A stretch of DNA of 64,000 nt from IMG/VR virus record IMGVR_UViG_3300038530_003247, positions 32,001-96,000 of that record; one strand, 5' to 3'. Of the stretch, positions 31,201-64,000 are shown piece after piece. Positions within the stretch are counted from its first letter, which is position 1. Each line of letters begins with the position of its first letter. Position numbers and translations under genes: made by a program. The notes beneath the pieces are model-generated. The model did not search any database and had not been told where the DNA came from. It saw only the letters and a program-made list of their open reading frames with translations. The DNA is from a virus (lineage: Duplodnaviria > Caudoviricetes).

Positions 31201-33500
31201 GTAACGGTACAAAGGTTAAGAAGAGAGACGGAAGAATTGAGTCTCTCGATCTCGAAAAGATGCACCTCATGGTTCAGGAAGCATGTGAGGGACTGGCTGG
31301 AGTTTCTGCATCTCAGGTTGAGATGACATCTGGAATCCAGTTTTATGATGGGATTACAACTTCTGAGATTCAGGAGATTTTGATCAAGAGTGCCAGTGAC
31401 TTGATTGATTTGGAAAACCCAAACTATCAGTTTGTTGCTGCTCGTCTTCTTCTATTCTCTGTTCGTAAACAACTTTATGGACGCAGGAGTCAACTCCCCA
31501 ATCTGATTGATCACATCACTTCTTTGGCTTATCAGGATCTTTATGATAAGGACATCTTCAATCATTACTCAAAAGAAGAGATTGAAAAGGTTGGTGGTTG
31601 GGTCGACCACTCAAGAGATTTCCTGTTTACTTACGCTGGATTGAGACAAGTTGTTGATAAGTATCTCGTTCAGGACAGGAGCACTGGGGAGGTCTATGAA
31701 ACTCCACAGTTCATGTACATCATGATTGCTTTGACCATCTTTAAGAATTATCCCAAAGAGACACGACTTTCTTACATCAGAAGGTACTACGATGCAATCT
31801 CAAAGCACAAAATCAACATCCCCACACCAATCATGGCGGGTGTCAGAACTCCCCTCCGTCAGTTTGCGTCTTGTGTTCTGGTTGATGTTGATGACACCCT
31901 GGACAGTATTTTTAGTTCTGATATGGCCATTGGCCGTTATGTCGCACAAAGGGCTGGTATCGGTATCAACGCTGGGAGGATTCGTGGGATCAACGCTAAG
32001 ATCAGGGGTGGAGAAGTACAGCACACTGGCGTTGTTCCTTTCCTTAAAAAGTTTGAATCAACTGTACGATGTTGTACACAAAATGGCATCCGAGGTGGAA
32101 GTGCAACAGTCCACTTCCCAATCTGGCACCAAGAGATCGAAGACATCATCGTTCTGAAGAACAACAAAGGTACAGAAGACAACAGGGTAAGGAAACTTGA
32201 CTATTCCATCCAGATTTCAAAACTTTTCTACGAACGTTTCATCCAGGATGGAGAAATTAGCCTGTTCTCACCGCACGACGTACCAGGTCTATATGACGCT
32301 TTTGGTACTGATAGGTTCGATGATTTATATGTGGGGTTTGAACGAGATGAGTCTATTCCAAGAAAAGTTGTCGGAGCTCAAGAACTCATTCTGGACCTCC
32401 TGAAGGAAAGAGCAGAGACTGGTCGTATCTATATCATGAACATTGATCACTGTAACAGTCACTCCTCCTTCAAGGATAAGGTGGAGATGTCTAACCTGTG
32501 TCAGGAGATCACTCTTCCCACTTATCCTCTTCAACACATTGATGATGAGGTTGGTGAGATTGCCCTGTGTATCCTTTCCGCAATCAATGTGGGTAAGGTT
32601 CACTCTGACAGGGAACTGGAAGACCTCTGTGACCTCGCTGTGAGGGCTCTGGAGGAACTCATTGATCATCAGAACTATCCAATCAAGGCAGCTGAGATTG
32701 CCACCAAGGCTCGCCGATCACTTGGAGTTGGGTTCATTGGTCTAGCTCACTATTTGGCTAAATTAGGTTATGGTTATGATTCGCAAGAAGCTTGGGATGC
32801 CGTTCATTCTTTGAGTGAGTCCTTTCAGTACTTCCTTCTGAAGTCGTCTAATGAAATTGCCAAAGAAAAGGGACACTGTGAGTACTTTGGTAGAACTAAG
32901 TACGCTGATGGGATCCTTCCTATCGACACCTACAAGAAGGATGTTGATGAGATCTGTTCACAGCCTCTTCAACACGATTGGGAATCGCTTAGAAAGTCGA
33001 TTCTGGCTCACGGATTACGGCACTCAACATTGTCTGCTCAGATGCCATCTGAAAGCTCGTCCGTTGTGTCAAACGCAACAAATGGAATCGAGCCACCTAG
33101 AGACTATTTGTCCATTAAGAAGAGTAAGAAAGGACCCCTTAAGCAGGTTGTACCGTCTTATCAAAAGCTTAAAAACAATTACACACTTCTCTGGGACATG
33201 AAGAGTAACGATGGTTATGTGAATGTGGTGGCAGTGATGCAGAAGTTCTTTGATCAGGCGATCAGTGGAAACTGGTCTTATAATCCAGAGAACTATCCTG
33301 ACAATGAGGTTCCTGTTTCTGTCATGGCACAGGACTTCCTCAACACTTATAAGTATGGTTGGAAGACCTCTTATTACCAAAATACATATGACAATAAGAC
33401 AGATGAAGTGAAAGAAGAACCAGACAATTCTAAACTAAACGACATCTTAAACGAACTAACCAATTCAGAGGAGGAAGCTTGTGAAAGCTGTGCAATTTAA
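31197..33500 (+). CDS. nrdA: Ribonucleotide reductase alpha subunit
   Basis: ATP cone VKKRDG, SCV, SNLCQEI, C-terminal CESCAI. Confidence 0.97.
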   Translation: MSNGTKVKKRDGRIESLDLEKMHLMVQEACEGLAGVSASQVEMTSGIQFYDGITTSEIQEILIKSASDLIDLENPNYQFVAARLLLFSVRKQLYGRRSQLPNLIDHITSLAYQDLYDKDIFNHYSKEEIEKVGGWVDHSRDFLFTYAGLRQVVDKYLVQDRSTGEVYETPQFMYIMIALTIFKNYPKETRLSYIRRYYDAISKHKINIPTPIMAGVRTPLRQFASCVLVDVDDTLDSIFSSDMAIGRYVAQRAGIGINAGRIRGINAKIRGGEVQHTGVVPFLKKFESTVRCCTQNGIRGGSATVHFPIWHQEIEDIIVLKNNKGTEDNRVRKLDYSIQISKLFYERFIQDGEISLFSPHDVPGLYDAFGTDRFDDLYVGFERDESIPRKVVGAQELILDLLKERAETGRIYIMNIDHCNSHSSFKDKVEMSNLCQEITLPTYPLQHIDDEVGEIALCILSAINVGKVHSDRELEDLCDLAVRALEELIDHQNYPIKAAEIATKARRSLGVGFIGLAHYLAKLGYGYDSQEAWDAVHSLSESFQYFLLKSSNEIAKEKGHCEYFGRTKYADGILPIDTYKKDVDEICSQPLQHDWESLRKSILAHGLRHSTLSAQMPSESSSVVSNATNGIEPPRDYLSIKKSKKGPLKQVVPSYQKLKNNYTLLWDMKSNDGYVNVVAVMQKFFDQAISGNWSYNPENYPDNEVPVSVMAQDFLNTYKYGWKTSYYQNTYDNKTDEVKEEPDNSKLNDILNELTNSEEEACESCAI

Positions 33501-36937: not shown

Positions 36938-37011
36938 GGGTCCGTAGCTCAGTGGAATAGAGCATCGCTCTTCTAAAGCGTTGGTCGTTGGTTCGAATCC
37001 AACCGGACCCG
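36938..37011 (+). tRNA. tRNA-Arg(UCU)
   Basis: Cloverleaf, GGGTCCG/CGGACCC, loop CT-TCT-AA, GTTCGAATC. Confidence 0.93.
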
Positions 37012-37031
37012 TTGGTAACTCTGTTACCTTT

Positions 37032-37104
37032 GCCTTCTTAGCTCAGCTGGTAGAGCAGGGCTTTTGTAAAGCTCAGGTCGTCGGTTCAAGTCCGTCAGAA
37101 GGCT
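37032..37104 (+). tRNA. tRNA-Thr(UGU)
   Basis: GCCTTCT/AGAAGGC, loop TT-TGT-AA. Confidence 0.93.
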
Positions 37105-37106
37105 CC

Positions 37107-37178
37107 GCGGAATTAGTTCAGTGGTAGAACGCCATCCTTCCAAGTTGGATGTCACCGGTTCGAATCCGGTATTCCGCT
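37107..37178 (+). tRNA. tRNA-Gly(UCC)
   Basis: GCGGAAT/ATTCCGC, loop CT-TCC-AA. Confidence 0.93.
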
Positions 37179-37195
37179 TTCCCTTCGGGGAACAT

Positions 37196-37267
37196 TCCTC
37201 TGTAGCTCAGCGGTAGAGCCATCGACTGTTAATCGATTGGTCCCAGGTTCGAATCCTGGCGGGGGAG
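37196..37267 (+). tRNA. tRNA-Asn(GUU)
   Basis: TCCTCTG/CGGGGGA, ATCGA-CT-GTT-AA-TCGAT. Confidence 0.93.
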
Positions 37268-37270
37268 TAA

Positions 37271-37438
37271 ACGGACTGGAATACATCCGTGCTCGCGTCT
37301 CCAGGAGAAAAAAGAACTGGAAAACCAACCCACGCGGGAGAGAGGTGGGATCCCTCTTGGTGCCCCCTCTGCTGACGAGCAGAGGGTATTATAAAATACC
37401 AGGACTTTGGTCCGAATTGCAGGTTGGTTCACCTGCCA
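37271..37438 (+). ncRNA. Multi-stem structured RNA between tRNA-Asn and tRNA-Val (family not assigned)
   Basis: At least 7 GC-rich stems plus an 8-bp long-range AACCAACC/GGTTGGTT complement. Confidence 0.55.
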
Positions 37439-37439
37439 C

Positions 37440-37511
37440 GCCCGAATAGCTCAGCGGTAGAGCACCTCCTTTACACGGAGATTGTCGGGGGTTCGATCCC
37501 CTCTTCGGGCA
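37440..37511 (+). tRNA. tRNA-Val(UAC)
   Basis: GCCCGAA/TTCGGGC, loop TT-TAC-AC. Confidence 0.93.
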
Positions 37512-62347: not shown

Positions 62348-62498
62348 CCTCACCAACGTTCTTAGACTTATCAGTGAGCTAGAAGGATCCTCTCAGATGC
62401 TCAACCTGATCGACGAACAGGAAGACAAAAGAATCATTGATCTTCTGAAGTCAAAGTATTATAAAATTTATTTCACTCTTAAGAAACTTGATAAATAA
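62331..62498 (+). CDS. Small hypothetical protein (55 aa)
   Basis: MKEDFSLTNVLRLISELEGS...YYKIYF. Confidence 0.55.
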   Translation: MKEDFSLTNVLRLISELEGSSQMLNLIDEQEDKRIIDLLKSKYYKIYFTLKKLDK

Positions 62499-62541
62499 TT
62501 CAAAGAGTATTATAATATACTCATCGGGTCGGAGGAACATC

Positions 62542-62760
62542 ATGACGAAACTCTTGTCGAGTTTATTTGTGATTGTATCATTGGGTGTTACACCCTCCTT
62601 GGCATCTAACTCTACACGAATGAATTGTGTGGAGTACTTTGAGATTCGTGATCTTATTATAGAAACTGAATGGTTCTCTCCGGAGGAAAAAGATCAGCTT
62701 CTTAGGAATCTCGAATCGTTTCATGGATTATCCTGTCTCTGGCCATCGTTCATTCCTTGA
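62542..62760 (+). CDS. Small secreted protein with two Cys
   Basis: GGAGG SD, signal peptide; 3' end overlaps the first aptamer. Confidence 0.6.
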   Translation: MTKLLSSLFVIVSLGVTPSLASNSTRMNCVEYFEIRDLIIETEWFSPEEKDQLLRNLESFHGLSCLWPSFIP

Positions 62761-62870
62761 GTTTTCATTTTTGGGTAGAAGACTAAAGGAACGCAAGTAG
62801 GACAACGCGGAACGGATCGTTCATTTGAGACCACCCATATCTCAAACGCACACGTTGCCCAAAGGAACGG
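62745..62870 (+). ncRNA. Tandem glutamine riboswitch-like aptamers (glnA / Downstream-peptide class)
   Basis: Two CGTTCA-P2-CGCA...GAACG units upstream of a YRGV-repeat gene. Confidence 0.75.
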
Positions 62871-62936
62871 GAACTAACTCGGATCACCCGAAAGGGTTAA
62901 AGGAGAAAAACTGTTCACCAACTTTGGAGTAAACAA

Positions 62937-63188
62937 ATGTCTCAAGCTACTTATCGTGGTGTTGCATACACCATCCAGAACGACACACAGAGTGTCCCTC
63001 AAGCCATCTTGACTTATCGTGGTGTGGACTACCGTCCCATCACTGAGATCAACCAACCCTCTGGTGAGCGCATCTATCGTGGTGTCTCTTACCAAGCTGG
63101 TGTCAATCTCGAAGTCGAGCATGTTCGTAAGAACATCCGTAAGCAGAACGCTCTTCACGGAGCACAAAAGTCTCTGGCAATGCGGTGA
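62937..63188 (+). CDS. DUF4278-like protein with three YRGVxY repeats
   Basis: TYRGVAY, TYRGVDY, IYRGVSY. Confidence 0.8.
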   Translation: MSQATYRGVAYTIQNDTQSVPQAILTYRGVDYRPITEINQPSGERIYRGVSYQAGVNLEVEHVRKNIRKQNALHGAQKSLAMR

Positions 63189-63208
63189 TTGGTCACTCAT
63201 AGTTTGTG

Positions 63209-63236
63209 AGGGGAGGGGTTACACCCCTCCTTTTTT
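63209..63236 (+). terminator. Rho-independent terminator
   Basis: GGAGGGGT...ACCCCTCC + T6. Confidence 0.8.
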
Positions 63237-63828: not shown

Positions 63829-64000
63829 ATGAAAGTTAGTTTAGTGACAGTTACTCCTGATGCAGAGAAGCACATCGCTTACTGTGCAAGAGTCAGTAAC
63901 CCACAGAATCAAAACAATGATTCGTTTGAAGGATTGCTCCGTTATTGCATCAAACATCAACACTGGAGCATCTTTGAACAAGCATCAATGACTCTGGAGA
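63829..64000 (+). CDS. thyX: Flavin-dependent thymidylate synthase, 3'-truncated by window edge
   Basis: AGGAG SD; [24 protein letters not shown]. Confidence 0.88.

Follow-up and report, generated by a model that had tools for sequence, protein, structure and literature searches.

A probable two-site variant of the glutamine-I riboswitch in cyanophages, with one sensor core nested in the other

The window analysed in this work is a stretch of 64,000 nucleotides of viral DNA (Caudoviricetes; IMG/VR record IMGVR_UViG_3300038530_003247, positions 32,001 to 96,000), and all positions given below are those of the window. Close to its end, the region 62745-62872 is a relative of the glutamine riboswitches, carried by a cyanophage and located ahead of a small nitrogen-regulator-like gene. 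A promoter-like site and a terminator enclose a small operon, made up of a 72-codon open reading frame (ORF), the RNA element and a gene for a DUF4278 protein. The features of the locus are the following:

62488-62516, plus strand: promoter-like site TTGATA-17-TATAAT (consensus scan, 11/12 matches), likely start of the small operon
62542-62760, plus strand: upstream 72-codon ORF (ORF list), product with a hydrophobic N-terminus and two Cys
62886-62897, plus strand: spacer hairpin ACCC-GAAA-GGGU (full leader fold)
62911-62932, plus strand: expression platform, whose segments CUGUUC, CUUUGG and GUAA are able to pair with 62855-62870 (full-leader minimum-energy fold)
62937-63188, plus strand: regulated gene, encoding an 83-aa DUF4278 protein that resembles the N-terminal portion of IF17, a glutamine synthetase inactivating factor
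63208-63236, plus strand: hairpin with a T run, resembling an intrinsic terminator and closing the operon

Many homologues carry a similar promoter directly 5' of the first CGTTCA. The ORF 62937-63188 matches Pfam family PF14105 with 35.3 bits (cut-off 25.3). DUF4278 is the usual partner family of glutamine riboswitches in cyanobacteria, where its link with IF17 has been described (PMC6212724). Elsewhere in the window, a cluster of five tRNA genes (36938-37511, plus strand; Rfam, 62.6-70.5 bits) is typical of T4-like cyanomyophages, and an ORF running off the window end (63830-64000) corresponds in position to the ThyX (thymidylate synthase) gene annotated downstream of the S-CAM7 locus.

The original prediction, made from the sequence of the window, had proposed two glutamine-aptamer-like units at this place, and the motifs it listed are all found at their positions. 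The four P1 strands, read directly from the plus strand, are CGTTC-1 (62747-62751), GAACG-1 (62810-62814), CGTTC-2 (62818-62822) and GAACG-2 (62865-62869). When the whole window was searched with Rfam at the gathering threshold, only the five tRNAs were reported and no glutamine riboswitch. The two Rfam models suggested for a check were then used permissively. The glnA model (RF01739) matched 62745-62818 in a local scan with 26.8 bits, below its cut-off of 35 (E 9e-4; E 6.7e-5 when the whole virus record was searched), and the Downstream-peptide model of glutamine-II (RF01704) had zero matches in the region 62600-63000 at E up to 10. The RF01739 alignment comprises unit 1 only, closed by a local P1 and with its P3 part badly aligned, and leaves unit 2 unmatched. 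Taken together, the RF01739 match, the recurrence of the two-unit layout in more than 140 independent viral contigs and the DUF4278 gene as next gene place the element beyond chance. The presence of two glutamine-aptamer-like cores is supported.

This recurrence was established by several scans. Viral contigs were searched with a 22-nt pattern spanning the junction of unit 1 alone (fixed part GCAAGTAGG....CGCGGAACG), and at least 119 of them matched. Among the matches listed, 76 of the 76 unique readable elements also contained CGTTCA, a hairpin, ACG[C/G]A, the 8-nt complement, (G/A)AAGGAACGG, a Shine-Dalgarno sequence and an ORF with a YRG repeat. A second viral scan, for unit 1 with ACGG replacing ACGC, yielded 28 further contigs, and a looser pattern at least 120 further matches in metagenomes. 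By blastn, the same two-unit layout was found in the Synechococcus phages S-B68 and S-CAM7. The leader of the window itself has four partial matches only among isolate phages; the commonest version of the element (L005) matches 47 isolate phage records, including S-PM2, S-CREM1, S-CAM7, P-SSM2, P-SSM4 and S-SSM7. Since unit 1 recurs across the viral contig, metagenome and isolate phage scans, it is conserved in viral homologues, as had been anticipated. The junction pattern was also searched in 185,579 prokaryotic species (one genome each), and the 11 matches obtained, none of them cyanobacterial, were all due to chance; they were rejected, as they lie in unrelated bacteria with the remainder of the element absent. 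Within the range of these viral, metagenome and species-genome scans, the element belongs to phages.

Neither unit has a P3 hairpin of its own, in agreement with the original prediction. The P3 strands pair across the units:

62800-62807, plus strand: 5' strand of the shared P3, GGACAACG, pairing with 62853-62860
62853-62860, plus strand: 3' strand of the shared P3, CGUUGCCC, the 3' half of which doubles as the predicted anti-Shine-Dalgarno strand

Between GGACAACG and CGTTGCCC seven of the eight pairs form, A62802 lying opposite C62858. This helix was the first of two cross-pairings proposed earlier, next to which AAGUA and AAAG face each other as an E-loop, and covariation upheld it. In an alignment of 44 unique phage elements, two-sided changes occur at 5 of the 8 pairs, for instance C-G, U-A or G-C at position 4, G-C or A-U at position 5 and G-C, U-A or A-U at position 8. 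Position 1 is G-C or G-U. None of 500 shuffles reached the observed covariation score, and the pairing of 92% fell to 28-53% once the 3' partners were slid by one to three columns. Further variants of the helix were present in the metagenome set (GGUUGACU/AGCCAACU and GGCCGACA/UGUUGACU), and in Sf-CH5 the helix is shortened to 5 bp, AGUCG/CGACU. When window-type P3 variants, in which position 5 is not G, were sought, only L032, a near-twin of the window, was retrieved, and the sublineage formed by these two contributed no extra covariation. GGACAACG/CGTTGCCC is a P3 helix shared by both units.

Two positions of this helix behave differently from the others. Position 3 (62802/62858; columns 60/123) is A.C, C.A or U.U in 44 of 44 elements and U-A in one metagenome variant, and position 6 (62805/62855; columns 63/120) is mismatched in 38 of 44 and an A-U pair in the window. 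These are the third pairs from each junction, mostly kept mismatched while other pairs co-vary, a symmetry which hints at a role for each pocket.

The way in which the P1 strands combine determines the topology of the RNA. As these strands are invariant, P1 is beyond covariation testing and cannot itself decide between partners. The known structures provide another criterion. In glutamine-I, the third base of J2/3, G23, inserts under P1 and pairs with C60 just 3' of P1, with glutamine wedged alongside (PMC11477058); the equivalent linchpin pair of glutamine-II is C19:G41 (PMC6698751). In both, the linking strand occupies the groove of the P1 whose CGUUC joins this same strand via an A and a hairpin (PMC11477058, PMC6698751). 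The partner of the linchpin base hence identifies the GAACG strand used by each CGUUC. In the alignment of 44 sequences, CG[C/G] of unit 1 and the base after GAACG-2 (columns 52/136) form C:G in 33 and G:C in 11, with 0 mismatches, and the CG[C/G] strand of unit 2 and the base after GAACG-1 (columns 73/114) form G:C in 30, C:G in 13 and another combination in 1. Standard linchpin pairs are therefore found in 100% and 97.7% under this nested reading, as against 56.8% and 54.5% when each unit closes with its local P1, the remainder being C.C or G.G. All four combinations of the two linchpin pairs occur. An independent metagenome sample, retrieved with a pattern that fixed none of the four linchpin bases, gave nested linchpins in 61/61 elements for the outer and 59/61 for the inner pair. 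Because the inner linchpin flips in at least three P3 backgrounds, we infer several independent substitution events; judged from the distinct P3 backgrounds their number is probably small, at least three or four.

By this comparative evidence the topology is nested: CGTTC-1 pairs with GAACG-2 to form the outer P1, and GAACG-1 with CGTTC-2 to form the inner one, in place of the local pairs CGTTC-1/GAACG-1 and CGTTC-2/GAACG-2 assigned originally. This assignment rests on the two co-varying pairs plus structural homology. Thermodynamic predictions point in the same direction, the minimum-energy fold of 62745-62872 being exactly the nested fold, with weak z-scores of -1.4 for the fold of the aptamer region and -1.3 for that of the full leader. 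In relative L130, Infernal with the Rfam glnA model aligned the entire element as a single aptamer having 46 nt inserted into P3 (50.2 bits). At the level of sequence comparison, the helices, their nested arrangement and the conservation of both cores are established, with the following parts:

62747-62751, plus strand: outer P1 5' strand CGUUC-1, pairing with 62865-62869 (linchpin covariation; minimum-energy fold of 62745-62872)
62753-62791, plus strand: outer P2 (unit 1), extended hairpin of 6 + 7 bp (TTCCTT/AAGGAA plus AGTTTTC/GAAGACT) with an 11-nt loop (sequence, fold)
62792-62799, plus strand: outer J2/3, CGC linking strand (linchpin pair C62794:G62870), followed by the 5' strand of the E-loop, AAGUA
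62809-62814, plus strand: GGAACG-1, of which GAACG (62810-62814) is the inner P1 strand pairing with 62818-62822 (linchpin covariation; both minimum-energy folds)
62815-62817, plus strand: GAU loop closing the inner P1; inner linchpin G62815 pairs with C62849 (alignment columns 73/114)
62818-62823, plus strand: CGUUCA-2, the other inner P1 strand and junction A (sequence, alignment, fold)
62824-62846, plus strand: inner P2 (unit 2), 7 bp (TTTGAGA/TCTCAAA) with a 9-nt loop, closing pairs co-varying (sequence, fold, alignment)
62847-62852, plus strand: inner J2/3, CGC linking strand (linchpin C62849), then ACA, without an E-loop strand
62861-62864, plus strand: AAAG, forming the 3' side of the outer E-loop and the outer J3/1 (corresponds to GAAG in the RF01739 consensus; (G/A)AAG in homologues)
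62865-62870, plus strand: outer P1 3' strand GAACG-2 and linchpin G62870 (linchpin covariation)

The pair C62794:G62870 is homologous to G23:C60 of glutamine-I (PMC11477058) and to C19:G41 of glutamine-II (PMC6698751). Each of the four closing pairs of the outer P2 shows two-sided changes in the 44 homologues. A CGUUC/GAACG P1 followed by an A and a P2 hairpin, characteristic of glutamine-I, is thus present twice. The glutamine-I E-loop, AAGUA opposite GAA, exists in the outer core only, where AAGUA (62795-62799) faces AAAG (62861-62864), the inner core having CG and ACA instead. P3 is not a loop-capped local hairpin, its strands being 45 nt apart and enclosing the second core. The low RF01739 score follows from this, because P3 is uncapped and leads into a second, permuted core. 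The loop of the inner P1 measures 3-20 nt in homologues and about 600 nt in Sf-CH5, where it harbours a homing endonuclease gene. In L094, a long insertion lies directly 3' of GAACG-1, the usual place of the short linker.

The nucleotides listed as contacting glutamine in PMC6698751 are present in both cores, and glutamine binding is predicted. The inner P1 is closed by 3 nt only, one of which is needed for the linchpin pair, and the inner pocket is putative. The element might also contain a single working glutamine-I aptamer, the outer one, with the inner unit as a structured, non-binding P3 insert, either a decayed aptamer or a folding scaffold. The missing inner E-loop would agree with this, as would the handling of the inner unit as a P3 insertion by the Rfam model and the tolerance of the loops for very large inserts, including whole ORFs and the homing endonuclease gene. 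It does not readily explain why the inner CGUUCA, ACG[C/G] and GGAACG, which the first viral scan left unconstrained, are nevertheless retained in 76/76 of the readable elements listed, nor why covariation of the inner linchpin extends over more than one P3 background; moreover, the inner nucleotides are those contacting glutamine and Mg in the glutamine-II crystal (PMC6698751). We consider a single working aptamer unlikely.

The original prediction had joined the two units differently, as two locally closed aptamers interlocked by a strand-swapped P3 and by kissing P2 loops. The identical P1 strands allow this by sequence alone, P3 is real, the local P1 of unit 1 could form first in transcription, and the best Rfam alignment in the window is unit 1 with its local P1. 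In L127 and L148 the linchpin bases fit both topologies, and there a local aptamer of unit 1 reaches 41.3 bits. The linchpins are nevertheless standard in little more than half of the 44 elements under local P1s, and 19/61 of the metagenome sample are mismatched under them. In most elements no more than CG joins the far end of the P3 5' strand to GAACG-1, L127 and L148 having a single A there, and the reach from this point to the unit 1 junction across an 8-bp helix would seem strained. The interlocked arrangement is consequently very improbable, and with CGTTC-1 closing with GAACG-2 and GAACG-1 with CGTTC-2 the RNA is nested without a strand-swap pseudoknot.

The second cross-pairing did not hold up either. 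TGGGT (62772-62776) and ACCCA (62833-62837) are indeed situated in the two P2 hairpin loops, but a run of at least five Watson-Crick pairs arises in about 12% of loop shuffles (P about 0.12), close to chance in the window, and among 48 unique elements such a 5-pair run is limited to 2, the window and its near-twin L032; all others, 46/48, have 2 pairs or fewer. Apart from L032, only chance matches were obtained when the P2-1 loop motif TTTTGGGNA was sought upstream of CGCAAGTAGG. GGG and CCC in the corresponding regions of S-B68 were considered as a loop-loop pair and rejected, since the fold puts GGG in a stem.

Finally, the nested and local-P1 folds might both form during switching, for example if a co-transcriptional local P1 of unit 1 were later displaced, so that the duplicated CGUUC and GAACG strands would be a strand-exchange device; the P1 strands are identical and a third P1-like decoy, CUGUUC (62911-62916), pairs with GAACGG in the predicted OFF fold, but the local-P1 linchpins are without covariation support and we regard such an exchange as having only a slight chance of being correct.

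Downstream of the nested cores lie a single Shine-Dalgarno sequence and a single start codon. The Shine-Dalgarno sequence GGAG (62926-62929) is part of the segment 62911-62932, and three of its four bases are covered by a predicted helix. In the minimum-energy fold of the full leader, taken through the start codon, both P2 hairpins and the inner P1 are kept, and P3 and the outer P1 are replaced by a three-part helix, 62855-62870/62911-62932. This fold has -49.3 kcal/mol, as against -45.7 for the enforced nested fold. The anti-Shine-Dalgarno duplex alone reaches -15.7 kcal/mol, a value matched by 3.1% of shuffles and hence of modest support. In most homologues of the main clade, CCC(G/A)AAGGAA is predicted to pair with UUUCUUUGG(A)G of the ribosome site, with energies of -7 to -12 kcal/mol. 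Comparable anti-Shine-Dalgarno pairing was not found among relatives whose outer linchpin is G:C. Known glutamine riboswitches are ON switches (PMC6212724). From the leader folds together with this ON logic, a translational ON switch with release of the ribosome site and a single expression platform is suggested.

The spacer hairpin of the window is followed by a second Shine-Dalgarno-like sequence, AAAGGAG (62900-62906), within a stretch of roughly 45 nt that is absent in most relatives. L032 keeps the spacer stem with the loop UUAG, and Sf-CH5 has the same hairpin.

The reading that we favour, with a probability of roughly 0.72, is that of a two-site variant of the glutamine-I riboswitch, one sensor core being nested in the other, with a proposed ON mechanism. 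The outer core would be an ordinary three-way junction, the P3 of which runs into another three-way junction, built from the same core nucleotides but circularly permuted. The shared helix would thereby carry a pocket at each end, with one core lying within the other. Without glutamine, the P3 3' strand, AAAG and the outer P1 3' strand (62855-62870) would pair with 62911-62932 and hide GGAG. Glutamine at either pocket would stabilise P3 and the outer P1, thereby freeing the ribosome site and turning ON the translation of the IF17-like DUF4278 protein. A steeper dose response than that of a single aptamer is plausible, because both pockets would stabilise the same helix. Two-site, possibly cooperative glutamine sensing can thus reasonably be inferred, ligand binding at both sites, the ON logic and cooperativity being predictions of this model. 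More tentatively, and at somewhat less than even odds, the element may represent an undescribed, cyanophage-specific architecture, in which both pockets of the shared helix bind glutamine and drive one platform cooperatively, and which may occur in hundreds of genomes.

Some ORFs overlap the riboswitch or are inserted in it. The end of the ORF 62542-62760 (...TGG CCA TCG TTC ATT CCT TGA; stop 62758-62760) reaches into the 5' strands of the outer P1 and of P2-1, so that ribosomes translating it should unfold the outer core. This ORF belongs to no Pfam family. Many relatives have a complete ORF of 55-70 codons within a P2 hairpin. Its start codon belongs to the 5' strand of the stem (CGTTCATCCTATG...) and its stop codon to the 3' strand (...TAGGACGCAAGTAGG), and the products resemble one another in their hydrophobic N-terminus and in two Cys spaced by about 40 residues. 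Against an HMM of these nested ORFs, 62542-62760 was the best of 705 ORF fragments of the window, with a weak E of 0.0098 (next 0.69). The ORF lies in the P2 of unit 1 in L009, L107, L112 and many other viral contig loci, and in the P2 of unit 2 in L124, L128, L135, L138, L140 and L147, found in the ACGG-type scan. The Sf-CH5 riboswitch (L183:230-480, L003:420-640) holds three genes in three loops, namely a homing endonuclease gene in the inner P1 linker and one small ORF in each of the P2 hairpins of units 1 and 2.

A survey published in 2017 found two glutamine aptamers only in cyanophage genomes and concluded that phages use riboswitches rarely (PMC5473149). The element described here, a probable two-site variant within a known riboswitch class, is widespread among cyanomyophages; its presence in the model phages S-PM2, P-SSM2 and S-CAM7 and in more than 140 viral contigs suggests that phage riboswitches are undercounted. 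Its scores are often at or below the Rfam cut-off, and standard scans report few phage riboswitches. It also provides a testable model of how cyanophages may read host nitrogen status to time the synthesis of an IF17-like protein. In the literature searched, which excluded Ames and Breaker 2011 and Ren et al. 2015, such RNAs are termed "tandem" only, and no description of a nested, circularly permuted or shared-helix glutamine riboswitch was found.

The closest known system is glutamine-I (glnA RNA, RF01739; e.g. the Synechocystis gifB leader, PMC6212724), with which the element has the core CGUUCA, hairpin, ACG[G/C], AAGUA, P3, GAAG and GGAACG in common, as well as the linchpin between J2/3 and the base after P1 (PMC11477058), the E-loop, a DUF4278/IF17-type gene downstream and the likely nature of a translational ON switch. 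It differs from glutamine-I in that its P3 is uncapped and opens into a second complete, permuted core, and in having two putative ligand pockets for one expression platform.

Glutamine-II (Downstream-peptide motif, RF01704; PMC6698751) has the same ligand-contacting nucleotides, C1, G2, G18, C19 and A37-G41, and a C:G linchpin as in the window, and it precedes DUF4278 genes of marine picocyanobacteria. Its crystal structure shows that the core can assemble from two strands (PMC6698751). The original prediction had drawn on this class for a pseudoknot strand supplied from upstream, an analogy that did not stand: RF01704 has no match in the window and scores only 24.9 bits on unit 2 of S-B68. 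In glutamine-II, the two flanks of GGAACG pair with each other and so enclose it in a hairpin loop (H-type pseudoknot), whereas in the window the flanks of GGAACG-2, which belong to P3 and the E-loop, pair not with one another but with unit 1 or the Shine-Dalgarno region.

Tandem glnA RNAs were noted at the discovery of this class (PMC2864571), and a review of tandem riboswitches counts 157 glutamine doublets and 4 triplets, filed as serial, pseudo-cooperative and with multiple expression platforms (PMC9481103). These likewise have two cores within about 120 nt of one leader, but the cores of the window are nested, with a helix in common and one platform. Neither unit has an aptamer fold and an expression platform of its own, P3 being shared and the P1s nested. 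As L125 is reported by Rfam as two adjacent weak matches, some of the published doublets may be this element. The tandem glycine riboswitch (PMC5066625, PMC5666159) similarly combines two homologous aptamers for the same amino acid with one platform and structural coupling; its aptamers are arranged in series with tertiary contacts, and they are neither nested nor joined by a common Watson-Crick helix. Compared with such serial aptamers, a nested pair with a common helix would be a different way of coupling two ligand sites, in which the 3' strand stabilised by both sites doubles as the anti-Shine-Dalgarno strand.
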